Assembly: GCA_044892525.1 (NCBI GenBank)
Contig: CM097885.1
Location: forward strand, 10,418,001 to 10,482,000
DNA: 64,000 nt
Direction: 5' to 3'
Source: Schmidtea polychroa
Lineage: Eukaryota
Part shown: positions 4,233-62,513 of the stretch, piece by piece
How positions within the stretch are numbered: the first letter of the stretch is position 1
Layout: each line of letters begins with the position of its first letter
Notes under the pieces: model-generated
The model's input: only the letters and a program-made list of their open reading frames with translations
Told to the model about the DNA's origin: nothing
Databases searched by the model: none
Made by a program: the position numbers and the translations under genes

Positions 4233-5339
4233 TAAATGTATTTTCAGACTTTGTTTTTATTTTTATTATAATGTATTTTAATCTGATTAATTTCCCATTA
4301 TGTTTGATTTCAATTTAATTTTTGCTTTTTCATGATTTATTTTAAAAAAATAATTAACCAATGAAATTAATTAAAAATATTAAAAAAAATTTATTCGTTG
4401 GCGATAATACAATATATTTCCTTATTATGTTTCATTCACTGTCTTTTAGCAATACTGACCAGATGACTATAGAAGCACGTTAATTCTTAATTAAGGAGCA
4501 TACATCCAGCCTTGTTCTCATTTATCTATTTTGTAATTGTGTCTTATATCTTCCAATTTCTCAATTCCTTCGTACATAGTTATAGATTTACTACTAATTG
4601 CCAATCGTAAATGGCGTTGGCATTTCATATTGATGAGCAAGTGCTAGCTATAAGTGATCCCAAATACACGAACGGTTGATATCTTAACGCTCCTCGAGTT
4701 TTTACGTGCATATTATATAAGGTATAGCGTCCAATATCTTTTTGTGGTCGCTACTTATAATAACATTATTACAAGTGTATCTTCCATTTACCTCGATACT
4801 CCTATCAATTCCAAATATTTGAATGAAGACATTACAAATATATAATAAAAATTAAACGATATTAAATGCACCAAGACAATGTTATCACGCTGTTTAACAT
4901 TTGAAAAGGAAAATGATATTACTTAATAAATTTTATAAAATATGTGAAGAATGGTACCGTCTAAAAATGACTAAAATGCACAAATGAAATTCTCAATAAG
5001 CTAATGACGTGAGTGATTTAAATCGCAAATTGGAAAATATAAAGTATCCCAACGCTTTCGTCATTTGAGAGGTATCGGTTAACTGCCCAATCGCTTTTAT
5101 CAGATGAGAACTGTCAGGTAGTACTTCTTCCAAACTTATAATAATCTAGTTCGTAACTCAAAACTGTAAATCTCTCATTTGCAAATTTGTCTTAACTACT
5201 TCATTAAACTAAGACCATCATCAAATGCTTTGACATTTCCAAATTAATTCATACCAAAACTTTGTGAGATATTTCCTGAATATGAAAATAGTGACATCAT
5301 GGAACCATCCAGGTCCTTGTCGAGGTGAGAAGTTAAAAA

Positions 5340-5878: not shown

Positions 5879-6080
5879 ATTCATTACAAGCAATGCCAGC
5901 AAATAAATTTCTAATTGCATTTTTATATATTCTTTTGCATTTATTTTGCATTTATCAAACTTCATTTTTACGGCAACACTTTTCTATTTTTAAAAATGAT
6001 TTCCATTCTATTAATATCTTCACTAATGATTAAATTGGCCTCTGCTAAATTATAATTACTGATCATTTCAAATTTAATTA
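5879..6080 (-). pseudogene. Truncated third copy (promoter, 5'UTR, signal peptide) of the palindrome gene
   Basis: About 200 bp is closely similar to 9990-10185. ATG at 5920 gives MQLEIYLLALLVMN versus MKLELYLLALLVMN, then the sequence switches into Helitron helicase. A second short match lies at ~5221-5252. Confidence 0.85.
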
Positions 6081-6156
6081 ATTTAATCGATATAGCATTC
6101 CAAATCAAAAAATGAAAACATTCTTTTTTTGATAAAGTGATTTATTTAGTGATTTA

Positions 6157-6245
6157 TTTAGGGTTAAGAGGTCATGTTAGGGTTAGTGTTAGGGTTAGGA
6201 TTAGGATTTAGGATTAGGGTTTTGGGGTTAGGACTATGGCAAGGG
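6157..6245 (+). repeat. Degenerate interstitial TTAGGG-like telomeric repeat
   Basis: Run of TTAGGG/TTAGGA/TTAGTG/TTGGGG variants. Confidence 0.7.
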
Positions 6246-6305: not shown

Positions 6306-8119
6306 CAAGGGTAGGCACGCATGGGTTCAATAAGAGCCATTTTCCGAAAATTTATTTTTTACAGAGCCACCATAGTAAAGTACATATTTTTTTTTATTTC
6401 ATTAATTTGATTAAAGAGACTTAAACGCTATTAAAAAAAAACAAAATAATTATTTCAAACATTAAGTAACAAACATAAAAATCCATTAATAAAAAGTAAT
6501 AAAATTTCTTGAATTAACGAAGACTTTTGGTCAAATCTTTGAAATTTGGTGTATACTTTGTTAAAGCTGTTCGCAGCAATTCTGTAAGATGCTGATTGGT
6601 CAACTGTGAACGATATTTCGACTTTACGAACTTCATTGTGGAGTACAAAGATTCACAACAATATGTTGTACCAAAAATTGAAATTAGACGGCAAGCAGCT
6701 TGTTTTAAGTGTGGATATTTTGCCTCTGGTACGAGTTTCCAAAATTCAACTATAGAAGTAGATTTATGGTGCATTTGCAAAGCCTGGTCCTCTTTCATAT
6801 CTAATAACTCCAATTCCCCAACCGCTTTTTTAACAAGTATTACTTCAGAAATTGGAAATCCATCTTCAATAATATCACAAATAAATGGGTTCACAAAAAA
6901 TGCAAATGTAGATTTATAACTTTTCAAATCTTCAAACCTACATTTGAAATCCGCTTGCAATTCTTCCAATTTTTCACTGTATTCGTTTACTTTTTCTTCT
7001 GTAATATCAATTATATTAGCTTTTATTCGTGGAAAATGATTAAATATTTTCGACCTAAGATCGTTCACAAAAAGCCGAAGTTTAGCTTCAAAACTAAATA
7101 ACGTTTGTGACAAATCAATAATTATCTTTTCTTTTCCTTGTAAAGCCAAATTTAATGTTTGCAAATGTTCCATAATGTCTGTAAGGAACATTAAGTCAGA
7201 AAGCCAAGTTTCATCAATTTATGTAGTTTTGAGTTGTCCGGATCCAAAACTTTAATCACTTCTTCCAAGTTTCTCTTAATAAATTCACCTTCTCCATATG
7301 GACGTTTAGCACGAGCTATATTCCAAGCTATCAAAAAACTAGCTTCGTTGGCACTGTCATCTTCACGACTAAAAGTAGATAATAGTCCTTGTTGGGCTTG
7401 AAGCCCTGATTGCAATGACTTAAGTTTTTCTGTCCGCAAGTTTGAATTGAGTGGATATTGAATTGATAAGTGTGGATGACTTACTTCATAGTGTCGACGT
7501 AAATTGGTTACTTTGTAGTTGGAAATTGTACCTTTACAAATAAGACACAACTATTTACCATTATTGTCAATAAAAATTGTTGTACATTCTTCTTGAAAAG
7601 TTCTATTTTCTTGGCTGTATTTTCGTTTTTTGATGTTTTCTGATGTCATTATAATAATAAATTTAAATAACTATATGGCTGAAATTTAAACAAAATAATA
7701 AAAAGACATTAATTTAATTTTAATTAGTTTAAAATTTTAAAATGCTTCATAAAAAAATCTTCTTACCAAATTTTTCAAAAAACACGAATAGAAAACTATA
7801 CTAAAATATACAAACGACCGCAATCTTGTACAAACAAAATAATAACCAATCAAAATTCACTAAATTTATTTTTGATGCTTCTCTCTCGTTGTTATAACAA
7901 AGCGCCGCCTACTACAAAATAATTTTAAAAAGCAGTAAAATGTGAAAAACAATGTTTCGTTAATTTTTGACATTTATGAAAATACAATTGCAACAAAAAA
8001 TTTTTTCTCAAAACATTTAGTGAAAAATTTCAAAATAAAAAATCGAATTCGATTATCAAGAATTCAATTATCAATGAGCCGCAGTTTACTCAACGAAGAG
8101 CCGCATTTGCCCACCGTTG
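6306..8119 (-). mobile_element. Internally deleted hAT DNA transposon (Charlie/SPIN/GTF2IRD2-like)
   Basis: TIRs are CAAGGGTAGGCA / TGCCCACCGTTG, with a perfect 8-bp TSD ATATAGTC (6298-6305, 8120-8127). The transposase remnant runs 7649->6514: KRK...CLIC...NLRRHY N-terminus (one stop), catalytic core deleted near 7210, and hATC C-terminus FWK...YPHLK...FGTTYCCESLYS. Confidence 0.93.
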
Positions 8120-8492
8120 ATATAGTCCATAACCTTCTGCTGGTTGAGTAAGGTATATATACCAATTATCGTACAGTATGGTCAAACGTTGCAGATTTCT
8201 AAAATGAACAACCAAACAGTTATTCTGGTTTACATATATTTGAGAAATAATAATTATTTATTTAAAAGGATATTGTAAAGCATTGCTTTATATGAAACAT
8301 TACAGAAAGATTTGAGTGGAGGTTGACAACTTAATATTGAAATAAACAGAAATTGAAAATAAAAACTTTTCGAAAAATTAAATCAAGAAATGGGAGATTA
8401 GAAACTATGAAGATATGTTTATGTTTCAGGTTAATTTTTAATTTATTTCATCTTATTAGATAATGTTGAGGAAATTAATAGTTTCGTTATCG

Positions 8493-8558
<66 letters not shown>

Positions 8559-9368
8559 AAAACTTCTCGTCTCAAAATAATTTCAATCAAAACATCCCCA
8601 CGTCTAAGCCGTGCCTAATTTAATTTTTAATCTTTTGTTGGCATGACAAGTTAACGTTTCACTTATCAATTTTGAAGTTTTCTGTTCATTTAAATTTTTT
8701 TATGCTGGTATGGGCAACCCAAACACCTCTGATAATATAAACATTCGAAAGACGTTATGATCCAATAAGTACACAAACATAATATGTCCCGGCAAATAAT
8801 CTTTAAAATTTTGTTATTAAGTAAATATTCCTAAGGAAATTTACTTTAGATTATTGTTTATTCCGCAATTAGCCCGCACCTTCATATACCTCAAGGGTTT
8901 TTAAATTTTGTGTAAAACTTAACGAATATGTGTAAAAAAGGTTTGATATAAAATGCGCCCCGAACCTCCCCCACTGCAGTTAATGTACAATTCGGTATTA
9001 CCAGATTCTTATATAAACTCAATTATAATTCCTTTTATTCCTTTATTTGCCTATCAAAAGATGTATTTTGTTTTCTAAATCTCGATTATTTATTGCGTAA
9101 ACAATTATTATATGATTTGACTCGTATCTATATTATCAATTCCCATCTATTTACCCCCCCCTCTATCTCACAATGTGTTAATTTTTACCTTCGCAATTTA
9201 ATTAATTCATTTCCACAGCTCCAACAAAATCAAAAGAAATTCTTAATCAAAAAATATTTTATATTTTCTCACAAAAGAATTAGAAATAAAAAATAAAAAT
9301 CTGGAGTAATTTGCATCTGATTATATTGATAGGAAATAAAAACAAAGATATTTATCCAATGATTGACT

Positions 9369-10031
9369 CTAGTGGGAAATATTCAGTTGAATAAATTTGG
9401 AGGTTAAATAATGCTGATGCATTAAATTGATCAAATCTCTAATAATTATATAATTGCGGATTTCCACAGCCGCCATTTCTCGGTATCGCAGTGACCAAAG
9501 CAAGTCGGCTATAATGTTGTCATTTGGTTTCATTTCCTGCTCCGAAGGATATACGACACCAACTTTGTGAAGTCCTTTCTGAATGTTGCATAGCAAACTG
9601 TCAACCCAAAATAATTTCAGTTCAGTTTCTAAAATCTTTTTCATTGATTTGTTAATCAGTCTAAGAAATATCTTCATTTTAAATGTGTCATCGTATACTG
9701 ATTTTAGATATGCCTTCAATGTTTCATCGGAATCAGATATTATCGTACGATTCCACCGAGGCTCCATGTTGATATTTATTACTTTCTTAGACGATAAATA
9801 CTTGGCTGGTGTAGACATTTTATTTTCATATTCCTTTTTCACACCCTCTAAATATGGAATGATTCTTTCTCTCTCCAATGAAAAGACCAATCTGAGAATC
9901 ATTTCCAAATGATCTGGAATGTAACTCAATTTGTAGCCACAAGGATGATTCCATGAATCTCTGAGCTTCTTCTCCTCACTTCCTATACTATTCATTACAA
10001 GCAATGCTAGCAAATAAAGTTCTAATTTCAT
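9369..10031 (-). CDS. Secreted ~220-aa helical protein, Unpaired/class-I helical cytokine-like (copy A)
   Basis: Intronless ORF. The likely start is ATG 10031 (the ORF track starts upstream at 10121), giving the signal peptide MKLELYLLALLVMNSIGS. Motifs: WNHPCG, LLCNIQ, RNYIIIRDL. The CDS is well supported; the family call is motif-based. Confidence 0.75.
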   Translation of the reverse strand: MKLELYLLALLVMNSIGSEEKKLRDSWNHPCGYKLSYIPDHLEMILRLVFSLERERIIPYLEGVKKEYENKMSTPAKYLSSKKVININMEPRWNRTIISDSDETLKAYLKSVYDDTFKMKIFLRLINKSMKKILETELKLFWVDSLLCNIQKGLHKVGVVYPSEQEMKPNDNIIADLLWSLRYREMAAVEIRNYIIIRDLINLMHQHYLTSKFIQLNISH

Positions 10032-10205
10032 TTTTATATATTCTTTTGCATTTATTTTGCATTTTATACTGCAACACTTTTCTATTTTTAAAAATGATTT
10101 CCATTCTATTAATATCTTCACAAATGATTAAATTGGTCTCTGCTAAATTATATTTACTGATCAAATGCTTTGACATTTCAAATTTAATTCATTATATTTA
10201 TATGA

Positions 10206-10353
<148 letters not shown>

Positions 10354-10936
10354 GTTAATGGAAACATCCAAAAAATATGTCAGATTCAAAGAAGCAATTC
10401 TCATCACAAACAGACGGCCAAAAATCAACACTAAAGAAATCAATGAAATCATCAATTTGAGATGTTGAAATTGAACTTGAGAATAACTGGTAACATATAA
10501 AAAAGATAATAAATTAAAAAGTAATAATTAAAATAATATAGAAAATATTAGGAAATATACTTTCAAAAGATAGGATTTATAAATAAAAATTGACACATTT
10601 ATTGAAATATTTAAACAGCCTATATAAATAGTTATTGGAGGCTTTATTTTAAAATATTTTGAAATATTTTATTAGGCCTCTAGAAGCTAATTATAGAAGC
10701 ATTAAAAATTTTAAAAATTTTAGTTTGTGTCATTTTAAATGATATTTATTTTATTTTAATTTTAAATAAAATTTTTAAAAATAATTCAGAGAAAGACAGT
10801 ATATCATTATATTATATTATATTTATAACCAATGAGAATTAAGGAAAAAGAAATAAAAGAAAGATAGAAATGTATTTTCGAGAAGAAGAATGCTAAATTC
10901 CAGGAGATTATAGTGGGAAATAAATAATAATAATAA

Positions 10937-11043
<107 letters not shown>

Positions 11044-11717
11044 GTATAAAGTGATGATTTCTTGGTAGCAGCATTTATTATTTAAAACAATAAAGTGATA
11101 GTTTAAGCCTTTTGCTGCGAATAATGTATTTAATAAAAAATTAATGAAAATTTCCCACTATAATCTCCTGGAATTTAGCATTCTTCTTCTCGAAAATACA
11201 TTTCTATCTTTCTTTTATTTCTTTTTCCTTAATTCTCATTGGTTATAAATATAATATAATATAATGATATACTGTCTTTCTCTGAATTATTTTTAAAAAT
11301 TTTATTTAAAATTAAAATAAAATAAATATCATTTAAAATGACACAAACTAAAATTTTTAAAATTTTTAATGCTTCTATAATTAGCTTCTAGAGGCCTAAT
11401 AAAATATTTCAAAATATTTTAAAATAAAGCCTCCAATAACTATTTATATAGGCTGTTTAAATATTTCAATAAATGTGTCAATTTTTATTTATAAATCCTA
11501 TCTTTTGAAAGTATATTTCCTAATATTTTCTATATTATTTTAATTATTACTTTTTAATTTATTATCTTTTTTATATGTTACCAGTTATTCTCAAGTTCAA
11601 TTTCAACATCTCAAATTGATGATTTCATTGATTTCTTTAGTGTTGATTTTTGGCCGTCTGTTTGTGATGAGAATTGCTTCTTTGAATCTGACATATTTTT
11701 TGGATGTTTCCATTAAC

Positions 11718-11871
<154 letters not shown>

Positions 11872-12045
11872 TCATATAAATATAATGAATTAAATTTGAA
11901 ATGTCAAAGCATTTGATCAGTAAATATAATTTAGCAGAGACCAATTTAATCATTTGTGAAGATATTAATAGAATGGAAATCATTTTTAAAAATAGAAAAG
12001 TGTTGCAGTATAAAATGCAAAATAAATGCAAAAGAATATATAAAA

Positions 12046-12708
12046 ATGAAATTAGAACTTTATTTGCTAGCATTGCTTGTAATGAATAGTATAGGAAGTG
12101 AGGAGAAGAAGCTCAGAGATTCATGGAATCATCCTTGTGGCTACAAATTGAGTTACATTCCAGATCATTTGGAAATGATTCTCAGATTGGTCTTTTCATT
12201 GGAGAGAGAAAGAATCATTCCATATTTAGAGGGTGTGAAAAAGGAATATGAAAATAAAATGTCTACACCAGCCAAGTATTTATCGTCTAAGAAAGTAATA
12301 AATATCAACATGGAGCCTCGGTGGAATCGTACGATAATATCTGATTCCGATGAAACATTGAAGGCATATCTAAAATCAGTATACGATGACACATTTAAAA
12401 TGAAGATATTTCTTAGACTGATTAACAAATCAATGAAAAAGATTTTAGAAACTGAACTGAAATTATTTTGGGTTGACAGTTTGCTATGCAACATTCAGAA
12501 AGGACTTCACAAAGTTGGTGTCGTATATCCTTCGGAGCAGGAAATGAAACCAAATGACAACATTATAGCCGACTTGCTTTGGTCACTGCGATACCGAGAA
12601 ATGGCGGCTGTGGAAATCCGCAATTATATAATTATTAGAGATTTGATCAATTTAATGCATCAGCATTATTTAACCTCCAAATTTATTCAACTGAATATTT
12701 CCCACTAG
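12046..12708 (+). CDS. Secreted ~220-aa helical protein, Unpaired/class-I helical cytokine-like (copy B, identical to A)
   Basis: Identical protein to copy A. ATG at 12046, with TATAAAA at ~12009-12015. Confidence 0.75.
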   Translation: MKLELYLLALLVMNSIGSEEKKLRDSWNHPCGYKLSYIPDHLEMILRLVFSLERERIIPYLEGVKKEYENKMSTPAKYLSSKKVININMEPRWNRTIISDSDETLKAYLKSVYDDTFKMKIFLRLINKSMKKILETELKLFWVDSLLCNIQKGLHKVGVVYPSEQEMKPNDNIIADLLWSLRYREMAAVEIRNYIIIRDLINLMHQHYLTSKFIQLNISH

Positions 12709-12908
12709 AGTCAATCATTGGATAAATATCTTTGTTTTTATTTCCTATCAATATAATCAGATGCAAATTACTCCAGATTTTTATTTTTTATTTCTAATTC
12801 TTTTGTGAGAAAATATAAAAAAAATTTTATTAAGAATTTTCTTTTTATTTCGTAGTCCGAAAATGACATGGGGCTTGGAAGATTAGATTTTCGAGGGTAG
12901 GAATAAGG

Positions 12909-13607
12909 CAGTGGTACGCAAACTTTTTACCTCCCGGCACAAAATAGAAAAAAAAGTCAAGGCACAAATAGAAAGAATGTATCTTTTATATAGAATTTTT
13001 TTAATAAAATGAAATTACATTTATATATTTTATTTAATGGGATGAGTGCGCTTGTCTTTTGTCGCAAATAAATTTTATACGTGGTTCGATTTTTGTTAAA
13101 CAAACTCGCAGCTCATCATCCAACATTAGCAATCGCTCTCTCTTTTTAGATTTAATCTCTGTGAGTGCAGAGAATCCGAATTCGCACAGATATGAGGATC
13201 CAAATGGCAGCAGAGATTTGATGGCTTTTAAACTTAAATCAGGATATTGACTTTTTACGAAAATCCAAAATTCTGCCAAGTCCTTCTCCCCACTATAAAT
13301 TTTGAAATTTTTTACGAATGGCTTTATTCCAATCATAGTATTAAAAATTTCAAAGAAAATTAGCAAGCCTACTATGGAAAATTTAAAACAAATTTGAATT
13401 TTCCATAAAAAATTCAATTAAATAACGGTCACTTTTATCAATTATTGTTACTTCTTGACAGTGTTTTGTTTTTATTAAATAACTACAAAAAAATATTTTA
13501 ACTTCTTTTTTTTATTATATAACTAAAAAAAATATTTTCGTACTAAATATTTTCGCATCAGCGGCACATTTTAAATTCTTTTACGGCACATAGTTTGCGT
13601 ACCACTG
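12909..13607 (-). mobile_element. Non-autonomous hAT (Buster/Charlie) element retaining the hATC dimerisation domain
   Basis: Perfect 16-bp TIR CAGTGGTACGCAAACT and perfect 8-bp TSD GAATAAGG. ORF 13034-13417 has EFW...YPDLS.KA...LLPFGSSYLCEFGFS...K.K.R.RL...QAHSSH. Confidence 0.95.
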
Positions 13608-14069
13608 GAATAAGGAATCTACCCTTAAACATACTCTTTAAATTTTAACTTTTAATATCAAAATCGAATAGATTGTTTGACTTACAAAGATGTGTCTTAT
13701 GTATAGATATTAAAATTAAAAGCTTTCTGATGGTGACTGAAAAATACCTTTGGAAGTTAAATGTCTGAAGATTGCGAATTTGAATAAATTGGATAGTATA
13801 AATCAAAATAATTTAACAAATCGTTTATATACATTTTTGTATTTTGGTCGCTGAAACCTATCGTTGAATAGTTCTAACGGGACCTGCAATAATCTGCACT
13901 CGAAAAGAACAAACTATTTCAATTGAAACTTCAAGTCATTTCGGGGAAATTGAAGTCACGGGGTTCTCACTCTCAAAATTGAATATAGAACAAAATTTAT
14001 TTTGCACTTATTAAAGGAAATGTTAAATTTAAATTGTTGTTTTGATTTTTTGAATTTATTAGGTTTGGT

Positions 14070-16090: not shown

Positions 16091-17667
16091 ATGGATATTA
16101 ATGGTATGTTTCTAAAGAATATTTTTAAAATATCATTATTATCATTAATTTAATAGGAGTTAATAGAATGCCATCATGGTATTTTTCTCAAATGAAAGGC
16201 TCAATCGATGATGATTGCAATGAAGGTATTTTAGGTGAGGTATATGGATAATTTATTCAAATATTTTTAGTTGATCAGATATCTTCTATGTCTTTCGATC
16301 CAACTGGAAATTTTTTAGCTACAGGTGATCGCGGAGGTAGAGTTGTCATATTCAGACGTAATGAAACAGTAAAACACAATGTTGTTTACGATGTATATGG
16401 AACCTTTACAAGCCACGAAGCTGGATTTGATTACTTGAAATCTGTAGAAATTGAAGAAAAAATTAATAAAATCGAGTGGTTACCGAAAATAAATTCTTCT
16501 AGATGTTTATTGACAACAAATGATAAAGTTATCAAATTATGGCGGGTAAAGGAACGTCCTGCAAATTGTCAGACGTCAAATAACAGTTCCAAATCCTTAA
16601 AACACGCCGATACACCATTTGTTTTGGGAACAAGAGTCGAAAGTAGTTGCCGTAAAACATTTGCCAATGCTCATACATTTAACATAAATTCACTTTCAAT
16701 AAATAGCGATCAGGAAACTTTTCTTTCATCCGATGAATTGAGAATCAATATATGGAATTTACAATACACAGATCAATCTTTTAATATTGTGGATTTAAAA
16801 CCCCCAAATATGGAGAATCTCACGGAAGTTATTACAGCGGCTAAATTTCACCCGACAAATTGTTCGATGTTCGTTTATAGTCTTAGTAGAGGCGTTGTTC
16901 GTCTGTGTGACATGCGACAACGAGCTCTATGTGATCAGTATTCATTTCAGTTTGTCGATAATGATGAGTCAGTAAATAAGAGCTTTTTCTCAGAAATTAT
17001 CAGCAGTATATCGGATATCAGTTTCAGTCATTCCGGCCAGATGCTAATGGCCCGGGACTACCTCAATTTAAAAATCTGGGATTTACGACAAAATTCCCAA
17101 CCGTTGGAAACTTTTCCCGTTCATGATCATTTCCGAGCGAAATTATGTGGATTATATGAAAACGATTGCATATTCGATAAATTCGAGTGTTCTTGGTCAT
17201 CCGACGATCGATATATTCTAACTGGATCTTATAATAACTTCTTCAGGGTTTTCGATGTCTCCCAGAGAACAAGTGTAACTCTCCAAGTATCTAGAGATAT
17301 GATTGATGGAAGTGTTGCTCTGGCGAATAAATTCGTTTCTACTCGATCTTTGTCGTCGAATTCTCGCGGTCGTGAAAATGAAGTCGGTTTGGAAAGTTTA
17401 GATTTAAGCAAAAAACTTCTCCATTTAAATTGGCATCCAACGGAAAATGTTCTCGCAATTGCCGCTACTAATAATTTGTATATTCTACAAAATCACAATT
17501 ACGTCATCGATTCTGGTTCCGATGTCGCGATGAATCCGTTGGAATCAGATCCACCCGATTTGCATCTGAATAATGGATATTCGCACAATGATCAACAACA
17601 ACAACAGTTCAATGACAACAATAACAGCAACAACAGTCCGATTAGGATGGAAATCGATGATGTTTAA
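16091..17667 (+). CDS. PPP2R2: Protein phosphatase 2A 55-kDa regulatory subunit B (B55/twins), ~492 aa
   Basis: Exons 16091-16103, 16157-16225 and 16271-17667 join in frame (1479 nt). Motifs: WYFSQMKG, LATGDRGGRVVIF, FDYLKSVEIEEKINKI, NIVDLKP.NME.LTEVIT, SFFSEIISSISD, LYENDCIFDKF, WHPTEN. Confidence 0.96.
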
Positions 17668-25957: not shown

Positions 25958-26578
25958 TTAAACCCGCAATATTTCTAAAGCACTCGTGTAACAAATTGAA
26001 ATCCAATCCGGCTGCAAGGAGCTCCACTGGATTTGATTAATTTCCCCAGCAGCAGTGTATGCTAATATTGGGTCCTCAATAGCTCGGGGCATGTTCGTTA
26101 TGTCCCATATAAGAGCTTGACAGTCCTCTGCCCCACTACACAAATGACAACTGGAATGAGGGGCCCAAGCAACTCCGTTCACACAACCTCGGTGATTGTT
26201 TAAGCGAGCAACGGGAGTGCATGGAACTCGCATATCTAGCACGATTATCTGAAAGAGTTTACCAGTTTTCAAACAACCGCCATATGTATGTAATAGATTA
26301 TTCATTTTAACATTGTAAAATTGTTTTCATTACCTTGATGAAGGTCAAATTGAAAGTCAGTATAGTTGTAAAAAGTTCAAAATTTTTTTAGGCAACAGTT
26401 TGTAATTTTTTGACTGTTATCGGAAATAAATAATCAATAAAATAATTGGACACATTTATTAACACGTTGAAGACCGCATTGCAAAATCGTATTTCTCACA
26501 TATGGACCGGTATTTTTTATTGTTAATTACGTATATTATATATTGAATATTTTTTTAGTGTACAATAATTTGAGTTAG

Positions 26579-26629
<51 letters not shown>

Positions 26630-29600
26630 GTATCCCTCCTACAATACGGTCGATAGGTTCCTATAATATGACGTGTTATGTGAAACCGTGCTATAGGAGA
26701 CTAGAAGCTGGTACAAAACAGGGGTTAAGTTCCAAAAAATATTTTAATGCCACAGAAGAAACTTTATTTCTATTAAAAATAACAAAATAAATAAAAATCT
26801 AAAGAAATAAACTTTCTCTTCCGAATTGTTTTTATATTTTCACCAGACATAGTTTAGGACTGAAATTTATTTTTCAAAAAATAGTCTTAAATTACTTAAT
26901 TACAAAGAATTAACTCCTTATTAAAAATTTTTGAAAAATTTAATAAAATCGATTCCTTTTAAATTAAAATTTATTTAAATATTTTTGTTTACTATTTCAA
27001 AATTCCATGCAATATTTTTTTTCTATTTTACAAAATATGGTCTGCGCTCTTGCGATGGGCTCCACAAAATGCTAAAATATGTTACAAAAAGAATTCATAA
27101 AAACACCTGCATAAAATTTTTAAATTTTGGAATCCAGCCAGGATACTGAAATTTTTTTGCAACAGCGAATTTATGTACATACACAAAAAATAAATTTGAA
27201 ATAATAAAATAAGGGTATTCCAAAATTGTATTTTATATCAATATTATAATTTTCTTAAAAAAAAGTGTTGTAGAAGTACTGTGTTATAAGAGGTTTTCGG
27301 AAATTTGTTTAATTGTGTTGTGTGATACCATGCTATAGGAGGGATATCTGTATTTCAATTAAAGTGCCTAAGGGTATTTTTAAATCATGCCCACCGGTGT
27401 ACAAGCCAGTCCCCAAGTAAAACATGTCGCATGCCCACCCGTGAGCACTCGGGCCGGTAATGTTGTTGCGGAGTGACCCACCGGTGGACTTTAACGTGTA
27501 AAACAGAAATCGATAGTGAAAGTTTTTGATAAATATTTGAAAGTTATGAAAATTAAATATAGATGTGACAAGAAGTGTATTGGTAAAATAAGAAGTAACG
27601 GAACGCATGTTGAGACCAAAAAAATAGTCTTTCGCTCATTTAAAATTTTTAATATCAAAAATTAATTTTCATTGTAGATTTTTCGAAATATTACTGCAGT
27701 AATTAAACTACCTTATATTTTACAATGGAAATAGAAACCACAAACTACCAAATTAAAGTTGGCGTTATACACAATAACACAATCTAAACAACAACGTTAC
27801 TGGCACAGACTAACTGGTTACTGACGCAATTCGCACTATTGTTGAAGTTTATAGTTAAGTAGTAAGGTATGTAGAATAGCCAACACAGAACACATGATGT
27901 TTATTCGATTTAAAAGGGAAAAAGGAACAAGACACGAAACCATATCATGCCAGCAAGGTAGGAATACACGAATATTCCCTGACTTGATGACAGGAAAGGA
28001 TTCCTGATCCACTAAATATATAACAATCACAAATAACAATCACTTGCATCATTCTTAAACATAAATAAAAATAAAAACAAAATCCTGATATAAAATTAGA
28101 CATATTTAAAGAAGAACGAAAATGTTTAGTTATAAAATTTTTAATGCATCCAAATTAATTAATTTTCAAAAGTCGACCAAAAAAGAATTCCTTTTTTAAA
28201 TTGCCAAAAAGAAAACAAAAGATATTTTACAAAAAATATCTTATTTAATAATTTTATAAACTATTTACAAAACCATAAAAAATTTAATCGAAATAATTTA
28301 ATCTATTGCAAAATCCATAATAACTCCAAATAAAATGCATATTGTGATTACAAAATTGAAAAACAAAAGTTTTATATGCGTAATAACTTCAAATATATTT
28401 TTATAAATTAAAATTGGAAACTAAAACTTTCAATAAATTTAGAAACGTATAACCAAAAAAAAGTTTATTGCAAACTTAGTCTTAAAAAATCAAGTTTTGT
28501 GTGATACTCCTCAAAGCATGGAACAATGCACAAACCACCATCACAATGTTTACACTGGTATCTTGATTCTCTGTGTATTTTTTCTAAGGGCCTGCCGAAG
28601 TGACTTTTTTGCCGAAGTCCGAAGTTCAAATTTTTAAATTACTATTTGGCCGAAGCCGAAGTCGAATCAAATGTCTGGTGCGTGAAAATAATTTAGGGAC
28701 CTGTACCTACTGCAATGACCTACGGCGATTTATTAAAATGAATCATATCAATAAAACTGAAAAAATTATACAATGGGTGATAATACAAGATATTGAGAAG
28801 TGTTCATTTTGTTGTCTTTTGAAACATGGATGTAAATTATATAACATAGATCTGTTCGCAACAAGCAAAGTAACGTGAAACGAAAAAATAAAAAAATACA
28901 TGTGTTTATATAAATATATACATCTTCATTAGTTTATTAGTAGTCAAAACGGACCACATCGAGATTTTTCATTAAAAATAGAAGCATCTCAGTTTTGGCT
29001 GGTGTTAAGTTTGATCGACGGTCATCGCATATAAGACCAGCCAAACTGAAGGTTCTTTCACTATCCACGCTGGAAGGAGGAGAAGCACAGAATTGTTTGG
29101 CGACCAGTGCAAGTTGAGGATAGGTGTATTGCCTTGATTTCCAATATTCTATTGGATCTTTTGGAGGCGAGTGTCGTTGGTTGCACGCTTCCGTTAAATA
29201 TGCATTGAGCTGTTGTTGGAGATTATTATCGCTCAAGCAAAATTTCACTATTTGGATCGTACAGGGTCTATTGCCGAAGTCCGAAGTTTCCGAAGTGTTT
29301 GAACTTTGGTCCGAATCGAAGTTCAAATCAAAGTTCGGCAGGTCACTAATTTTTTCCTTCTTTCATATGACTTTCGAGAACAAACAGCGCAATATCGAGT
29401 AGGAAAGCACTTTGATCGCTCTAGAGGCATGGCAGAATATCTAAACAGCCAATCAGGATGGATGATCGAGATATTTCAATAAATATCTCACAGTACTCTA
29501 ATGTTCGAAGATATGCGATTTTGCTGTTTTGACGACAAGCTTCATAACATCATGTCAACACCATAGATATTTTTGCGCTTAAAATGTCGAATTTCGCACA

Positions 29601-32600
29601 TAAAAGAGTATGTGCGAAATTTTTAATTAATTAGTTTATTTAGAAGAAAAGAGCTGCTGAAAGTTATCGTTTACTTCGGGAAGTCGGCGGTGAATATGTT
29701 ATATCTCAAGATACTCGCAAACGCCTTAAAAGTGACGATTTCGACGTGAAAGACAAAAAACGTTTAAGTTAACCAAAAAAGTTTGAAAATAAACCTTACA
29801 AGCATCATTAGATGAAGATTACTTTCAAACTCAAAAACAATTTGCAGAAAGATTAAACGCTTCTCAGCAAACGATTTTTGATCGTTTAAAAGCTACGAAA
29901 GAGAATTTAAAGCAAGGCCAATTCAACAGAACCAATAACAAATGTTAGTGCTAAACTATGCCTTCTGGTTCGACAATTCAATATTAAAGCATATTTATTA
30001 TGATGCTCACTTAATACATATTTCTGAAGTATTCCAATCCATCTTTGAACAATTTTACAATTAGTCTGACTATTTAACTGATTGCCAACTTTTCTTTGAA
30101 ATTCGCAATTGGAATCATTACTTTAAAATCTTGGCATTATTCGGCTTGTTCGTAGCATTCAGTGGCAAAGTGTTACCCTTTGATAGCACATTGTGTGAAT
30201 AAGTTTAATGAGAATATTGTTCATTTGCGGTCAGTTCTGAGGACAAATCAGGATACATAACTTCAATATTTTATCGTTTTAAATTGCATTGTGGTTATGG
30301 TATCAATAAACTTCAATAAATTGTTGGGATCATTGTCATCACTCAATAACACTAGGATAATAATTCATAAGACCGGAATTCAGTCACTGACAAATCAACA
30401 TTGATCTATTATTGTAATGAAGATAAATGCTATTCGAAAGAATTGTTTTGGGTTAGGATTTTTAATATAACACTCTAACTCCGATATTCATTTAATCATT
30501 ATTAAAAGTCATAGTCAGTGACAAAAATAAAAAAATCACCAATTCTCATTGTGAGATGTTACATTTTATAATATTAAATCTCAAAAATGTTTAAAGATTA
30601 AAATTTGAAAAATAGAATATAAACTGAAAATATATAAATTTTAAATAATGAAACGAATTTAGAAATAAATACACCTATCCCCCGATTTACACGGTAGATA
30701 CGTTCATGAGAAAAACGTGTAAATCGAAAATTAAAAATTTTCAAGTCAAAACCGTGTAAATCGAAAAGCTTGCAGAAAATGCATAATTTTGCTATTTAAC
30801 AGTTGTGATTTTTTTCAATATTTTTAGGTGTACACAGAAATAAAAATAAAATGCATTGACAGGTTAAAATATGTAATATATTACGGAAACACTGTTTTTT
30901 TATTTAATTACAATACATTAAACAGAAGAACAAAAAATAAAACCAAAGGTGTTTTATTATCCTTCATCACTATCAGAAATTACTCTCATTCTTTTTTTCG
31001 GAATCGAAGGTTGGAATTCATTTTCATCACTCGGAGTTATTTGTGCCGATTCGATGTTTGAAGCAGAAATATTTACATTCTGAGAGGTGGTAATAAAATC
31101 GGTTATTAACAATTGCTTCGAATTTTTTGTAAGATCTTTGTAAACTTCTTCATATTGAGCCAAGCAGCGATTTATGTCATGTTGGAATCGTAAAGCCCTT
31201 TCTACGTTTGTGTCATTTTGTATAAAATGATTACCCAGCTTTCTTCCCAATGCGAGTCCTTCGCGGATGACTTTAGCAGTGAATGTTACTGGTACTAATT
31301 CCTCTTCATCAGATTTTTCAGACTCACTTTCGCAAACTAAGTTAACTAAATCATCCTCACTTAGTTCTTTATCAGCCATTAACTCTGCGATATCATCATC
31401 AGTAAAATCATCAAAACCTTCTCCGCCCAATGAATGCGCCATCTGTACTATCTGCGAATATTCATCATTTAACGTTGAAATGGAATGTTCATTTTTGACT
31501 ACATTTGGCCACAATTTTTTCCAACAGCTATTGAGCGTTGTTTGCTTAATCGCAGTGTATGATAAGGCGATATGCTTCACACAGTCTAATATTGTAAAAT
31601 TTTTCCAAGCACTAATAACTGTTAAAGATTCATTTTTCTCCATTTGTTCCAAAATATATGTAAAGGCTCTCTTTTATGTACAAAGCTTTAAAAGTAGAAA
31701 TTATGCCTTGGTCCAATGGTTGTAATAATGAAGTTGTATTTTTTGGTAAAAATTTTACTTCAACGTTCTCATATTCTAGATCTTGTGGGTGACCCGGCGC
31801 ATTGTCAATTAACAAAAGCACTTTAAAAGGCAATCCCTTTGAACCTAAATATTTTTTGGCATCTGGGATAAAACATTCATGAAACCATTCAGTAAACATT
31901 GCAGCAGTAACCCACGCTTTCTTATTAGCCCTCCAATAAACGGGAAGATTTTTGATGTTTACTCCTTTAAAGGCATGGGGCATTTTTGATTTGTTAATCA
32001 CAAATGGTTTCATAATATAATCTCCTGAAGCATTGCTACAGAAAAGAATTGTTTTGCGATCTTTTGCTGCTTTATGACCACTAGCCGATTTATAAAATTT
32101 TGAGACATTAACAAATATTTTTTAAACTTTAAAACTTTAATTTTAAGCGAAGTCAGCACATAAGCTCGAGATTCCCCGTGAGATGTGTACACAGCGCACG
32201 TGTTCAAACACAGTAGCATTTAGTAGAGTGCGATAAAAACAAAAAAAAACTTATTTGAAAAACCGTGTAAAAGCGAAAACGTGTAAAACAAGTACCGTGT
32301 AAATCGGGGGATAGGTGTATATATAACGCTTTCCTAAAAGATTAGTACGTTGTGTTAAGTGAAATCTCACTCCTTGAAGTTTGTTTGATCTAACTTATAA
32401 AAAAATAAATATTATTATCTAAATTTCTCAATTATGGATGTTTTAAATACGAGTTGTGAAAAACAATAACTGGTAAATTATGAGGTTAATTCGCGTCTGT
32501 GTGCGCATTGTATTATGAGATGTGGTTTGTGTTTGTATGCGCACACAGGCGCGATCAGTGTCATTTTTTGTGATGGTTGATTGTCAGTTTGTCTCGCGCC

Positions 32601-36600: not shown

Positions 36601-39600
36601 GGTCTTTTGAACTTGATGAAAAAATCAAAGTCATAATTGAAGAAGTCATACAACACTTTGAAAAATGCTTTAAATGTCAATATTATAACTACTTAAATGT
36701 TCGTAAAAATCAAAGGTCACAGGCTGAAATGGTTGAGAAACATTGCTTTAGATGGTTTTCAATTCATTCATTTCATTTGGGCGTAGTGTTCAATTGTTGA
36801 ACGAGGATGAACTGTTGTCTCATCACAAACCAAATCGTAAAATCACATTTATATCTGCGTTCAAAATTAATAATAATCATTATTATAGTGGTAGTTGTAC
36901 CATATGGGGTCATTATTTAATTATATTGAACAAGTATTAGCATATTATATTTTCGTCACCATGGCTTTTACATTTGAAATGTCTTATCTGGTAATTTCAT
37001 TTTAATTTTAATGTGAAGAGTTCAAGAGTTCAACAGAGAAAAATTTTAAAGGAAAATAAAGGAAACATTTTAGTCTTAATCTGAATAATTTTCTCCAGTA
37101 AGTCAATTGGCTAAAACATAATTTCGATAAAGATAATGTCAACACGAACAGTGAAAGGATTTTTAATCATAGATAAATTTGTTTTCATAATTTCTGATAA
37201 TTTATTTCAACAAACAGAAAAGTTTTTGTTGACCCAAAAATGTGGATAGTTAAAAATTTTCAACAATTATATTAAAAAAGTAGGAGTCCGAGTAACTAGA
37301 CACCAGGATTATCAAAATTTAAACAAAAACATACTTCAGGTGAATTTAAGGTGAACGTCGCAAGGTAATTCGCGTCTTGTTTATTCCAAGCCAATCGTAA
37401 AAGTGCCGATTTATTTGGATCTTCATAAATAATTGTAGAATGCTCCAAATGACGCAAATCAAACATTCTTACGGATGCATCAGCCCCTGAACAAAATAAT
37501 GTGCATAAATTCTAGAATTTCAATTGATGAATAACCTAGAAAATTGTTTAATGTTTTATGCACATTTTTTGGTATTAAAGTGAATGTACAAATACAGAAT
37601 GACTTCCCGACTCCATCAACACAGCTTAAGAATGTATAAGTGATGTCATTTTAATATAATATTATTCGACAATTTATGAATGCTTTGTTTATTTGTATTT
37701 AGCAATTGTTACAAGTTTGAATTTATCTATTTAATATTAAGCAAATGTTCAGTGAAAATGAATTTTTATCTACTAAGGATACCTTATATTCGTTCTATTT
37801 AAAAAGAAAGCATTTCAATAACCAGCCCCCCCCACACACATATATATATATGAATAAATTTTTCTGGTGAATTATATTTCATCTCCAAATCAAGAAGAAA
37901 TTTATCTTTAAATTCAGAATCCTACATGAATTCTCAAATCATCACAAATAAAGAGATATTACCAAGATTCCCGATTGGTATCAAGGAAATGATAAAGAAT
38001 TCACAATTTCTGTCATCTTTACGGAAATACTTTAATTATTTAATTGACTGAATAATTTATATAAAATAAAGGTTTTTATTATTAAAAGAAATTAAAACGC
38101 AACAATTAAAATCATATATAATTAATTAAAAAATTTTAAATAACAGCTGTCGATTTGCGACTGTCGTTTTAGGGGGAAAATGTAATTTCAGAACCATTTT
38201 CAACGGAATTAAAAAAGGAAATCACTTTGCGATTAATTAGGGGAACACTCGCGTAACAATAAATTATTTTTTGTAAATTATAGATTAAAGATTAAATTCA
38301 AGTTCAAGATTTTGATTGACAATGAACCAGATCAAGTGCATACATTAACAGCGGTTGCAGAAAGTGAAATGCTGTTTAGAGATTGGGATTTCTCAACTTT
38401 TTTCATTTCTCGAGAATCCGAGAGTCTCGTTTTTTGCAATATTATGATTCTCGAGAAAGCGAGAGTCTCGTTCAAGAAATTTCAGGACCCGGGAAATTTC
38501 CCGAGAAATTAAAGAATCTGAAATAGTTTATAAAAAATGAGAAAACAAGAAAATTTCAAAGAAAAAAATTGTATTCAAATAAAACTAACACTATTCACTA
38601 CAAAACTAAAGAATATATAGCAAAAATAGAAAAGTTAATACATCATATGATATTATACCAAATATACCACAAAAACAAATATAATATTTTTTATTTATTG
38701 ATATTTGTGAAATAAAATTTTAAAAAACAAAGTACATCAATTGCTTTGTCAGTTAAACGTGTTCGTTTTTTAGTTACTATATTTACTGCTGTTGAAAAGT
38801 TTCTTTCATTTTGTGCTGATGTTGGTCTGATAGTCAGTAAAGTCTTTTATTTTGAATAAGTTTTGGGAAATTTGTCCATTTATTTCGTATAAATTCATTT
38901 CCTTTAATAATAAATTTACATTTGTTTTTATTTCAGCCGTTGCCAAACAATTGTTGATCGAATCTTCAAGTTTTTCTTTTAATGTTTTTTCAGCAGATTT
39001 ATCAATTTCAATTATTTCAATATTATTCTCCTCACAATTATTTGGATGATCACCAACACCAACAACAGCTCCTTCACCATCACCATCATTTTTATTAATT
39101 TTCAGCATATTAGATTTTGCTACATTTCATTTTTCGAAGCAGATTTGAAAAAATCTTTTGCATCAGCATTTAAGGAATTGGGATTATTTAAAAATTTAAT
39201 TAATGAGACTAAAGGTACATTTCTCCTTTTCGAAATTTGATCTGTTATTTCAGTAAGTAATACGGCTTTTAAATGTGTACTCTGCTCAGTCAACGATTCG
39301 AACAAAAATCTTAATATTCCTTCCGATGTTAATAAATTTGTGTCTTGTCTGGATAATGCTTCAACAGCAATTTCTACTGGTTTTAACGCTTCTAAAATAT
39401 TTTTTGCTTTAAGAGTAAAATTATTATCCCATAAATCATAAAAATTTAAATCTATTAGCGTTTTTTTTATTGGTTCAATCAACCTTAAAAATCGTTCTAT
39501 CATTGTGATAATACTATTCCATCTTGTTTTGCAGTCAAGTAATAAATGTAGATCTTTATTTTCTACTTCATTTACATATTTTTGAAGAACAGAATTTCGT

Positions 39601-42600
39601 ACAGGGGAATTTTTAAATTTTTTAACAATTATTCGAATTTTATGAATTGTTAGTTTTATATCATCTATATCATTCAATAAAAATGTTTCCCCTGTTAAAT
39701 TATTATCTTCATCTGAAAATAAATTGTCTTCAACATCATCTGATGAATCAGAATCTGAAGAATGTTCATGTTTATTATTTTTATTTGAATAAAATATTTT
39801 AAGGACTGCCAAATGTAAAGCATGATTGTAACATAGCTGCAACAAAGCTGGTGATAAAGTTCCAAATTTTACCATAACGCTTGCACCATCACTTGTAGTG
39901 GCAATAATATCTTTATCAAAACTAATATTAAATGAATTTAACTTTTCATTTACTAAATCGACCATTTTATCTGCCGGGCAGCTACCATGTATACGAACTA
40001 GTCCTAGATTTTCCGACATACCACTTGCATTATAATATATGTATATTTAAATATCGTCGGTTCCTAAAACTGGTCCACTCGTCAATACTTAAAGAAATTT
40101 TTTGATTTTTTGATTTTATTAGTTTTATTTTATTGACAATATCATCTTTTTTTTCATTGTAATATTTATAAATTATATTCATTATATCCGTTGGATATTT
40201 TGGTAAAACAAATCCTTGTAATTCTAAACTATTTCGAATAAATTCACATTTTGAAATCTTTTGAATGGGAATATTGTCGAACGCTGCTAGTTTTGAAACA
40301 ATTTCCCCAAGACTTTGTGATTGTGTACTTTTTGGTTTAAAATAATTATTTATGCTCGTAGTAGCACTGCTTCTCATACGTTTGCAACCTATATTTCCAG
40401 CCTGCAAAGTCTTGGTCATACCATGTTTTGCTGTTAAATGCCGGTGTAATCCAGTTGTTGTTGATCCTTTGCAATTAATTTCACTTTTGCAATATTTACA
40501 TATTGCCATATTTCGGTCTTCACTTCTTTCAAATTCTAGCCAACAATTCTGATACTCATTTGGTTTGGTATTTTCAGACATCTTTAGCCCTTTACTTTAA
40601 GTTCTAAATAAAGTAATTGTGATTGTAATTGTGAATGATTTAATTATCAATACTTACGAAATATTTAAATTTTTTCTTGTATGATTTGTATAAATATATA
40701 ATAATAATTTAATAATAGAATTAAAATTACAAAATTAGCTTTGTGCACTTTTAAAACAATTGCTATCACAGCAACTACAGAAAAATGTACTAAATTGTAT
40801 AATTTGAAAGTATTGGTTTTCGAAATTTAATAAAAGTATTATGGATCTAGTGATAAATATATACTATCTATTATATACCATCTATTAAATAAGTCAAAAA
40901 TTATAATTTGTTGGGGAATTTTCTATAAATAAGAATTTTCTATGGGGAAATATTTTAAGGTTTCCTTCTCGGGACTTGAAAATAAAATCTCGAGAAATCG
41001 AGAATCTCGTTTTTTAACCTTTTTCACTTCTCGAGAAACAAGACATAAAAAAAATATACAAGTCTCGAGAATTCCCGAGACGAGATTTCTCGATCCCAAT
41101 CTTTAATGCTGTTCAGCCTATCTCAAACGATCCCATACGCTGCAGACAAATTCAAAAGGAATTCATAATCCAAAAAACAGTTCTAAACTGCAAAACAGTT
41201 CTAAAAAAATACGTGTTAATGTGTAAATGAACATATTAATATTATTTATTTTAAAATTATTTTTGTAGGTTATTATTATTCCATGTTTTAGAATATTAGT
41301 TAAGATTCGATTAAAATTGAACGATTAACGATGACAAAATCACATGAGAATGAATATGCAAACAATGAAGAATGTCAAAATCTGATTATGAAATTTCCTA
41401 ATTTATGAATTAATTTTGTAAAATTTTCAATTAAATATTTTTAAGTTAAAATCGGCACCTCAATTGGCAGTCCGTTATTACTCATCCGTCTTAAAATTAA
41501 GTTTTGCTCCCTCCCCCAAATTAAAAGATTTTAGTTCAGTTCTCTTTAGTCTTAAGTTAACGCCTGAATCTCAAATTATTACAATTAGTTTGAAACAATT
41601 TTTAATTAATTTTTTTAATTTCGATTTTATTCACAATTTCTCACATTTTATCATTTAATTTTTATTAACTTCTAAATACAATTACTAAATTTTTCATAAT
41701 AAATTTTAATTTTTACATTCATCAAATATTTTGGGTTCATACATTTCAATAAGAATAAGTCTCCACCCGTTCCTTATCTAATGAAATTTGCGCCTTAGCT
41801 CACAGTGTGACTGGCCAATCCTCAGTTTAATTATGTATCGCGTCTGTGTGCGCATTGAGTATTGATTGTATATTTTCTGTTGGGTTGCGCAAACAGACGC
41901 GAGGCAAGGTATTTTTGACTTTAATATTTTTATTAATGGATTGTTTTGGACTTTTTACAAGTTTGTTTAAAAAGGTTTTTTGACGTGAATTTTTGAATAG
42001 AATAAAGATTTTTAAAAATTATTATTTTGTAGAACTACGCTCGAAACTGTTTTATTTGTCATATTTCAAGTGGTATTAATATTTAATCGTTCTGATTTCA
42101 ATATATTAATAATTAAAACCCAAAAATATTGAAACTTTATTTATAATACAGATTCAAAAAAATTCTATTTTATTTGATGTTACTGGTAATTTTATACAAC
42201 TCTCACATAGTTTCACATGCTTCAACTGTGAATATTTCAGAATATGATTAAAAAGAAATGGAAAATTCAGCTTAATTAAAGTCGAATCCACATTAACCAA
42301 GACAACATATTCACTTGTGATTGTCGTAAGTCATTTTTGGCACTATTCAGTTGAATCAAGTTTATGTCAATAACGTGGCCTATATGACATCAAAGTTCAT
42401 ATTCGAAATTTTTTTAGTAATGATCGTGATTATAACAATATAAAGAAATTATGCTAATAACAATTCTCATTTATTAATTTTTTGTTCAAATAAATTTGCA
42501 TCTTTAAATATATTTTAATGTTTTCTTTTTGAATACAAATTCTAATTAATTGTCAATAGAAAGTGTCTGATCAGCAATAAATTGATTTAAAAGTAATAAA

Positions 42601-51736: not shown

Positions 51737-54700
51737 TAGAATAGAATATTAAAAATAATAAAAAATAATAAAAATTAATATTGAAAAAAATATTTAACTA
51801 TTGAGTTTATTTATTTTCATTAAATGGACATTTGTTTTATATGCATTTAATTTATTTATTAAAACACACAAAGAACAAGTTTTGAATCTTTTTATATATT
51901 TAATTATAAATACGTGTAATTATGAAATAAATTTCAATGAGTTTTAACGAAATTACTTTTATCTTCAATGTTTGACATATTTTTCATGATAAACATTTTA
52001 TCATATTATGAGATTTTTTATTCTGAATATTAGGAAAATAATTTATTTATTATCCCAGATGTTAATTTGTGTAACAATGTATAACAAATTTAAAATAATT
52101 ACAATTTTATAATTTTGATATTTTTCCTAAGTTTAGAATATCAATTTTTTGAAATTTTATTTTTAAAATATTTAAATATTTGGTTTGAGAATTTAAATAT
52201 AATGTTCGCGCTTATGGGGATAAGAGAAAAAAATTCGAGATGAACTAGGAGTGATCAAATATAGTCTAAATAGGGATTCTTCATACTCGCTAATGATTTA
52301 ATCACTTCCTCCCTACGGTCCCATGGCGTCCACCAAGTTGGAGATGTGCAGAGGCTGTGAAGGGCAAGGAGCAGGTGACCCCCATCACTAAGACTACTCT
52401 TCCCTGCTCCTTAGAACACGAATTTCAGTCTGCCGATAGAAAGTCTTATGTCAACAAGATATTGTAGCGGTCTCACATTTATAAACTTTAGTCTCTCACA
52501 GACAGATCTTCTCATGCAGTGTTCGGATAAAATCATTTTTAATGCCGCTGTTGGTTGAGACATCTTCTGTTGTAAGGAAATATAAAATTAAAAGTTTCCG
52601 ATTACTTGAATCCTTTGTTGGGCGTTTCTCAAAAAATCTACTGATTAAAACAACTGCTGACTAGCAGGTGTAAATGATGGTCATGTGTCTAAGTTGTTTA
52701 AGAGAAGTCAAAAGGAATTACACTGGATTCTCGAGAACTCGCCCCAAAATTGTTTCGAAATGACAAGACACCTATGATAGGAGTCATATTGGTAATGTGC
52801 AATGTCGGCGAAATCCATAGAGTAGTTGACCCCCTATGTTAGCACTACTTCTCTATAGCCTTTCTAGACGGTGTCTAGACTGCCGATAGAAGGACTTACG
52901 TCGGAAAAACAATCTCTATTCTCCTTGAGGTCCCAAAGGAGAAGGCAATATAGTGCAGAAAAAAGAAATTTGAGTAATGTTCAGGGGTTGATGAATCAAG
53001 AACTATGAAGCATGCTTAAGTTATCAAGAGTATCGAAATTAACATTTCACGAGTATAAGTCACAAATAACAAAAACCAAATTTATTTGTTAACAACTAAG
53101 CGGTTAGTATAATGAATTTTTCATCCATTCACATGAGATTTGCCCAGAAACTGGCAGCTTCGGCCTCTGCTAAAAGGTCATCCAGGTCGAAGTTGACAAC
53201 CATGGTCTCATCCCATAGTAAGGTGACTGGCGGGATCACTCAAATGATCTTAGATTGTTCCGATTTTTTGGCCGCGGCTTAGGCTTGCCTCATGCGCTTC
53301 CTATTGGTTCTCTCTGCCTTTTCTACCAAGCGACGACTAGTTGGGCAGTTGACGATGCCACCGACAGTTGCGAGATAATTGGATCAGAGCTAGTTCTTGG
53401 GCTGACGAAAGCTTGTGTCGTAGGAATCTTCGATGGCTCGTCGCAACCGGCGCATGCCAAACTGAGAGTGACAATTGGCCATTCCTATAGATGGTAAGCG
53501 GGAAATATATTGAGATAATCAATTCCGGGGAGTTTCCTTATTCGAGACTTTATCTCTTTGTCGATGTATATTTGATAGAGCATATGGGATTTCTCTTTGA
53601 TGAGGGTTCTTTGTGCGCGATTTTCCTCGAGCAGATTGTCTCGACAGTGCTCGATACGCAGACATTTTTTGTTGGCCTCCTTCATCTGGACAGGGGTAAA
53701 CCATGTCCCTTCTAGATGATCTATCTTTTGTCGTAGTAACTTGATTTCCGAACGTTCTAATCCGAACACGAAAAGAAAGGCTGGAGTTGTGTTTTTCTGG
53801 GTGGATTGGTTGTCATGTTCTAAAAGCCATAAGGAATTAACGAAATTGTTATTGTGAGAACTGGAGAAAATTCCGAAAGGATTTCGAACATAAGTGAAAA
53901 TGGGTTTGGAGATCGTGAAAGACAAAACTACCCAGATCCGGTGATGATAGTGACGGTGAAAAAATTAATAAATAGAGTAAACTGCTGGCAGCAAATTGGA
54001 AGCAATATTGGTGACTGGGATTTACGGGGTTACTTACAAAGATCATATTGTTCGTAGTCTAACAGCTATTAATATAATATCTAAGATGGGTCGATGAGTT
54101 TAGTATAATTTTCTACTACTAATTTTTTACAGACTATAATGTTTCGGAATCAGGTGAAGTGAACCTCGACTTTGCGAAGCACTTAAATTATAAAACTACA
54201 TCCGTTTGCAGTGAACAATCACATTATAATATGGGTTGGTGTGTACAACCAATTATAGATGCGACACTACATATTTCTGATGAAATGGTTAATTTATGAC
54301 TAACTATTTTAGCCATTTTATAAATGGCTTTCAAGTAATTTTTTTATTTAAAGTAAATTTTAAGACTTGATTTTTGATCCATATAGATATGATCTTAAAT
54401 ATTACTTTTTATCAACAATTTTTATTATAAATTATTTAAAATTAATTTTCAGGGTTTTTTTAGGAGTTTTATGAAATTTTATGAAGTTATTTGGAATTAT
54501 TTCGATATAATGTAAGTCAGATATATTTATTATCTTCAACATTTTCAAAGGCATTAATTAGTCGAATTTTCTCATGTTCTATTAAAAAACCTAATATTAA
54601 ATTTATTAAAAATATGAAGATAAATCATACGAAATACTGTCTTTATTAACTATACAACTCAAAGTTGAGTCTTCGGAATTTCCGTCAAAATTTTTTCGGT

Positions 54701-62450: not shown

Positions 62451-62513
62451 TTTTGAATTTTTGTTATTGTAGATATTCAGTTAATTTAAACACAATTAAT
62501 TAAATTAATTTAA

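Follow-up and report, generated by a model that had tools for sequence, protein, structure and literature searches.

A likely secreted helical protein encoded by an inverted gene pair in Schmidtea polychroa, with hints of an IL-6-type cytokine fold

The open reading frame at positions 12046–12708 (+) of the 64,000-nt stretch of Schmidtea polychroa DNA analyzed here (contig CM097885.1; the whole stretch is referred to as the window) is intronless and uninterrupted and encodes a 220-aa protein, P0001. P0001 is likely a secreted, lineage-restricted helical protein, and we put the probability that it is a secreted long-chain cytokine of the IL-6/LIF type, signalling extracellularly and upstream of STAT, at roughly one in two. 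The ORF is a gene, because an ATG-initiated frame of at least 220 aa arose in none of 500 base shuffles of positions 8001–14000 and because a full-length homologue exists (E 1.3e-32). The initial annotation of this DNA had described a signal peptide, and the N-terminus is indeed hydrophobic (KD 2.84 across residues 5–13), such that residues 1–17, judged by hydropathy only, are likely to form a signal peptide; the chain past residue 18 comprises about 202 aa (24 kDa). The two cysteines assigned to WNHPCG (residues 27–32) and LLCNIQ (146–151) were verified as Cys31 and Cys148 and are the only ones in the protein, and the three sequons (N94 in NRT, N127 in NKS, N217 in NIS) and the C-terminal RNYIIIRDL (192–200) are all present as annotated. 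The broader proposal of a likely secreted, all-helical mature chain of about 200 aa is supported. Upstream of the ORF, a TATA-like TATAAAA is located at 12009–12015 (+), about 30 bases ahead of the ATG, which is a weak signal in an AT-rich genome, and two STAT-type sites of the form TTCNNNGAA lie within 11278–11686 (starts at 11278 and 11678); their density of 2 per 1 kb upstream versus 0.42 per kb in the window is not significant. No RNA run was among the public runs listed as containing the gene, and the RNA runs X8, X9, and X10 are without coverage of the ORF and provide evidence neither for nor against expression.

An exhaustive HMMER search among 1.84 billion representatives retrieved a single homologue, P0122, a protein of 219 aa encoded on a 1009-base contig and 32% identical to P0001 over residues 6–219. 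The two proteins have in common the hydrophobic N-terminus, DSW..PCG, W.DS.LCNIQ, YP, RN..I..D, and a C-terminal N-x-S; both cysteines are kept in P0122, which has no others, at a spacing of 116 residues versus 117 in P0001, and the hydrophobic N-terminus of both, with about 202 aa to follow in P0001, agrees by hydropathy with the signal peptide and mature chain of about 170–200 aa that characterize secreted long-chain cytokines. The motifs that had been singled out initially from P0001 are exactly those conserved in its sole homologue. By itself, the W..PCG motif is not rare: the corresponding DNA pattern gave 335 matches in the genome versus 451 for a reversed control, and among the 30 of these 335 places that were read only the two known gene copies fitted. 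Further searches added nothing new, be it a word-based search with P0001 (0 of 143 candidates homologous), a two-sequence profile of P0001 and P0122 (only P0122 among 1631), or a scan of metagenomes, in which none of 591 pattern matches was a homologue. Genome searches with P0001 and P0122 as queries yielded no paralogue, and the frames L003 and L046 were rejected as such, being unrelated. No Pfam family matched P0001 or P0122 at E 10 with the HMMER filters on, Unpaired (PF15972) included; PF15972 searched over the genome likewise gave no match, with an uninformative control. An atlas search with P0122 returned no feature match at 0.9 and structural TM values of at most 0.38. We also looked for a confident match to an unrelated family or fold, which the initial annotation had held incompatible with a cytokine, and obtained none.

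The predicted fold is a hint at a cytokine, not a result. The AlphaFold model of the single sequence (pLDDT 42.7, pTM 0.26) has helices B and C fused, and no cytokine was among the structural matches listed for it. The model computed with the homologue for residues 22–213 (pLDDT 35.2, pTM 0.23) places helices, in precursor numbering, at 39–71, 75–81, 102–134, 140–156 (with Cys148), 172–180, and 186–211; the resulting long-short-long order of loops fits up-up-down-down cytokines, at a pLDDT of only 35. With this two-sequence model, Foldseek found nothing at E 0.001. Human IL-6 accounted for 5 of the 48 matches listed, with the top query TM-scores of 0.27–0.29 as compared with at most 0.22 for the others, although these E values of 3.7–6.9 are not significant and represent one protein only, with no other cytokine among the matches listed. 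In a second look with VIA at 129 chains, 5 of 35 rows were again IL-6, aligned end to end over 115–126 residues versus at most 83 for the remainder; here, residues 13–192 of the model were superimposed on IL-6 16–184 at an rmsd of 5.2–6.1 and 8–11% identity, with Z-scores of 2.5–3.7 that are far below the level of trust for helical bundles. A wide VIA search gave partial helical hairpins (best Z 5.2) and no cytokine among the 50 matches listed, and nothing reached E 0.001 in a viral structure library. The long-chain four-helix cytokine proposed at the outset is weakly supported, by helix and loop order and by the end-to-end alignment with IL-6, with scores below threshold and pLDDT values of 35–43. 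In the structure prediction that had been suggested as a check, the long-short-long order was seen in one of two low-confidence models, helices B and C being fused in the other.

Comparison with the IL-6/oncostatin M/LIF group reveals several likenesses, namely a predicted signal peptide followed by a mature chain of about 200 aa and, in the low-confidence model, four long helices connected by long-short-long loops, the C-D loop including a short helix, to which the weak end-to-end structural alignment with IL-6 may be added. In oncostatin M, the Cys6-Cys127 bond connects the N-terminal arm with helix C. The two cysteines of P0001 are 117 residues apart, which is close to the spacing of 121 in oncostatin M (Cys6-Cys127 according to the accessible part of PMC8355150), and a short helix within the C-D loop is described for IL-6 in the available portion of PMC7378365. 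P0001 differs from the IL-6/gp130 family in that there is no match at the sequence level, the FxxK motif of site III is missing where helix D begins, and the gene has no intron.

To our knowledge, JAK/STAT ligands are poorly identified outside arthropods and vertebrates. Arthropod Unpaired-like ligands carry W.NPCG, (V/L)LCE(I/L), and a C-terminal helix of the RD..I.RD type, and it was in this light that P0001 had initially been named a candidate Unpaired/IL-6-type cytokine. As with Unpaired and Upd-like proteins, P0001 is likely secreted, predicted to be glycosylated, and fast-evolving, and its W..PCG, LC.I, and R...I..D may correspond to the family motifs; W..PCG, LCNI, and RN..I.(R/K)D are shared by P0001 and P0122. 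Unlike Unpaired, however, P0001 does not match PF15972, the Asn in the NPCG of the family is replaced with His in P0001 and Tyr in P0122 (W.HPCG and W.YPCG), the host is not an arthropod, and neither Domeless nor JAK was found in partial searches of its genome. Membership in Unpaired is not supported, and P0001 cannot be placed in this family.

It is also quite possible that P0001 is a lineage-restricted secreted helical protein other than a cytokine, with a role in mucus, glands, egg capsules, or the binding of small ligands, and that its two cysteines stabilize another helical fold. The absence of significant family or fold matches, the single homologue among all representatives searched, and the failure of our partial searches to turn up a receptor or JAK are in line with such a protein, as is the only match in a PDB sequence search, an insect odorant-binding protein aligned over 49 columns at E 0.0068. 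Insect odorant-binding proteins have six conserved cysteines in a helical domain of 120–150 aa. We rejected membership in this family, as P0001 has two cysteines and about 200 aa and the match covers one amphipathic stretch. Length, order of helices and loops, cysteine placement, and the end-to-end alignment with IL-6 agree on a cytokine instead. In addition, cytokines diverge fast, as illustrated by the Upd-like protein of Aedes, which has low identity to the Drosophila Upds and yet signals through Dome (10.1101/2025.09.21.677592, in the part accessible to us).

If P0001 is a cytokine of the IL-6/LIF type, its precursor would be cleaved near residue 17 and the mature chain would fold into a bundle of helix A (39–71), a long loop, helix B (102–134), a short loop, helix C (140–156), a long loop with a short helix, and helix D (186–211). 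A bond between Cys31 and Cys148 would staple the N-terminal arm to helix C, and the A-B loop and the C-terminus would be expected to carry glycans. The ligand would then act on a divergent receptor and, through it, on STAT; by default, this receptor may be a very divergent Domeless/gp130-like protein with JAK, neither of which was found in our partial searches.

As to the host, the genome assembly totals 781 Mb and consists of 1012 contigs, of which four are very large, and the window has a GC content of about 28%. The initial annotation had described the genome as non-arthropod-looking, and a tree of the neighboring PP2A B55 protein, with 23 of the 120 relatives listed, indeed places this protein outside the arthropod clade (99/98) and beside two trematodes, with a long-branch warning attached to this tree; we take the host to be a free-living flatworm (planarian). 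The PP2A B55 regulatory subunit itself (16288–17667, +) is intronless and fast-evolving, with at most 56% identity to named relatives; two further relatives, both unnamed, are 97% and 78% identical. A host STAT is present, as indicated by a match of the linker above the Pfam cut-off plus paralogous pieces within about 120 kb; at least two very divergent STAT genes (L034/L042/L043) are located on opposite strands at C3:18.00–18.13 Mb, a span of ~120 kb. SOCS-type SH2 exons were recognized by eye.

JAK and class I receptors were addressed by nine partial genome searches, the negative outcomes of which do not show absence. They carry little weight because the STAT_bind family search missed the very STAT genes that exist in this genome. 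For JAK, the FERM_F2, FERM_F1, and SH2_1 family searches of the genome were empty, with their controls silent as well; the WYAPE pattern gave 6 matches, of which the 2 that were read were a SYK-like kinase and a non-coding place; and none of the 50 places read among 93 matches to the DPG pattern lay inside a kinase, a DPG-pattern look-alike being rejected as JAK. The search with the tyrosine-kinase family, in which 146 of 1152 candidates were scored, gave 154 matches, and nothing JAK-like was seen in the 40 places read (37 readable kinase pieces). A pseudokinase with DAG was discarded as a JAK candidate, as its SH3 and CRIB-like exons identify it as Ack/PR2-like; this gene (L150–L152, C1:246.34–246.39 Mb) has DAG for DFG and HGHL for HRDL and is likely a pseudokinase. 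The SYK-like kinase locus occurs in identical form on C2 and C4 (L012/L013 and L038/L039), which would reflect either recent duplication of the locus or duplication in the assembly. For the receptor, the IL6Ra-bind family search of the genome was empty, no Domeless-like gene was found in the partial searches, and the fn3 model gave 119 matches, with one WSEWS frame (L225) and no class I cytokine receptor in the 70 loci scanned. The WSEWS frame was rejected as a cytokine receptor, since it belongs to a gene whose Ig-FN3-transmembrane layout is DCC/Cdo-like (L225/L264–L266, C1:44.20–44.25 Mb) and that has the full WSEWS in its membrane-proximal FN3 domain. FN3 domains of cytokine receptors often escape the fn3 model.

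These outcomes leave some room for a protein of cytokine fold whose signalling bypasses JAK and Domeless, for example through a receptor tyrosine kinase, flatworms perhaps having kept STAT alone. Such a mode of action, which we consider improbable, would accommodate the fold hints together with the presence of STAT and nine partial searches devoid of JAK and cytokine receptor, as well as the silence of the literature, in which we found nothing on planarian JAK (the accessible parts of PMC7958881, PMC4795655, PMC4993586, and PMC6970515 offer no information about a JAK, receptor, or ligand in planarians). It would also agree with the discussion in the available portion of PMC13203501, according to which there is no JAK in Platyhelminthes and IL6R-like receptors date back only to molluscs; yet the results section of the same article, as far as accessible, contradicts its discussion on JAK, and the article misses the flatworm STAT. 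The negatives listed above are weak, given the miss of STAT, the fraction of kinase candidates scored, and the tendency of the fn3 model to overlook cytokine-receptor domains, and we retain a ligand acting through a very divergent receptor with JAK as the default.

The gene is part of an inverted repeat with arms of 1.7 kb. The left arm (9224–10921) contains a second copy of the ORF (9369–10031, −), upstream DNA, and an AAT microsatellite, and the right arm (11150–12853) holds the copy at 12046–12708; the two are separated by a spacer of 228 bp (10922–11149), half of which is an AAT run. The second ORF copy points away from the first and is identical to it at all 663 bases (0/663 differences). 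Between the arms, 14 columns differ, all of them either in the AAT microsatellite or among the 33 outermost bases, making the arms unequal in microsatellite length and at their outer ends. The inverted duplication is probably not an assembly artefact, because contigs from public DNA runs bridge both arm ends (the right one in X1 and X2, the left one in X3 and X6). In four of five runs, the depth over the gene was 2.1–2.5 times that of the flank (26.6/12.9, 88.2/36.4, 34.6/14.6, and 109.3/42.9), with the caveat that depth is not copy number; run X1 is the exception, with 310 for the gene versus 369 for the flank. Two samples of a second study share six identical changes over the gene, found in one single contig at about twice the flank depth. 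Overall, we take the duplication to be both real and shared. In these samples, divergence of the gene amounts to 6/777 bases versus 24/1018 in the flanks (p 0.009). Within the coding sequence, 4 non-synonymous and 2 silent changes were seen, without any stop or indel (pN 0.0076, pS 0.015, too few changes to be tested). The arms are likely homogenized by arm-to-arm gene conversion, as judged from collapsed contigs rather than phased reads; selection at the protein level may add to the low divergence of the gene, and the presence of two inverted copies likely means a doubled gene dose.

On mammalian sex chromosomes, gene-bearing palindromes are held identical by arm-to-arm gene conversion. The present locus resembles these in its two identical, divergent gene copies within inverted arms, but differs in that the arms measure just 1.7 kb and conversion is deduced from collapsed contigs. 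A silent or decaying duplicate, or a second copy created by assembly fold-back, is very improbable: a broken third copy 3 kb away and the gene depth in run X1 would be in line with it, but the ORF is intact in samples of two studies, contigs bridge the arm ends, the other four runs show increased depth, and the arms differ from each other in microsatellite length and outer ends. The remnant third copy (5879–6083, −) comprises upstream DNA and the first 14 codons at 84–89% identity, after which homology ends, with a stop at codon 30; it was ruled out as an old full paralogue, since its profile score past the signal peptide equals background. A further fragment of the upstream DNA, 33 bp at 94% identity, lies at 5220–5252 (−). 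Beside the remnant, a short interstitial TTAGGG-like run is found at 6157–6235, and the right arm end is adjoined by a high-copy repeat (12900–13600).

In the planarian Dugesia japonica, STAT5 is required for regeneration, and the accessible part of the text reporting this (PMC13662587) does not contain the words ligand, unpaired, or domeless; secreted factors in planarian JAK-STAT signalling are posed as a question in the available part of PMC8797187. According to the accessible part of PMC13203501, IL-6-type ligands were not found in invertebrates apart from Upd of insects and a lectin of crustaceans, and we found no flatworm helical cytokine in the literature that we searched, most subscription journals being outside its scope. 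If P0001 is what we tentatively take it for, it would be an IL-6/LIF-type cytokine in a phylum with none found on record, and the history of helical cytokines would gain a fast-evolving branch among spiralians. Going further, P0001 might be the first class I helical cytokine of flatworms and the missing extracellular signal for STAT5 in planarian regeneration and antiviral responses, encoded as a gene-converted palindromic pair, and, should triclads truly be without JAK and Domeless, STAT signalling would be by another receptor; we regard this extended proposal as rather unlikely in its entirety. As a named candidate accessible to RNAi, P0001 makes the question of the signal upstream of planarian STAT directly testable.

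Several other features of the window are worth recording. A cluster at 62103–63664 includes a Pox_A32-like packaging ATPase (63038–63664, +, above cut-off), a TBP-like ORF with a single repeat (62514–63029, −), and a small Cys-rich ORF, and resembles a portion of a Polinton/Maverick-type element. WD40 exons at 25958–26326 and 51209–51748 (−) read like a single gene that extends across 25 kb, the two exons being separated by transposon remnants; we take this gene to be of the DCAF7/WDR68 type. Remnants of hAT-type and DDE/Tigger-type transposases are scattered across the window at 6514–7218, 13034–13417, 28937–29362, 30957–32121, and 39120–40596.
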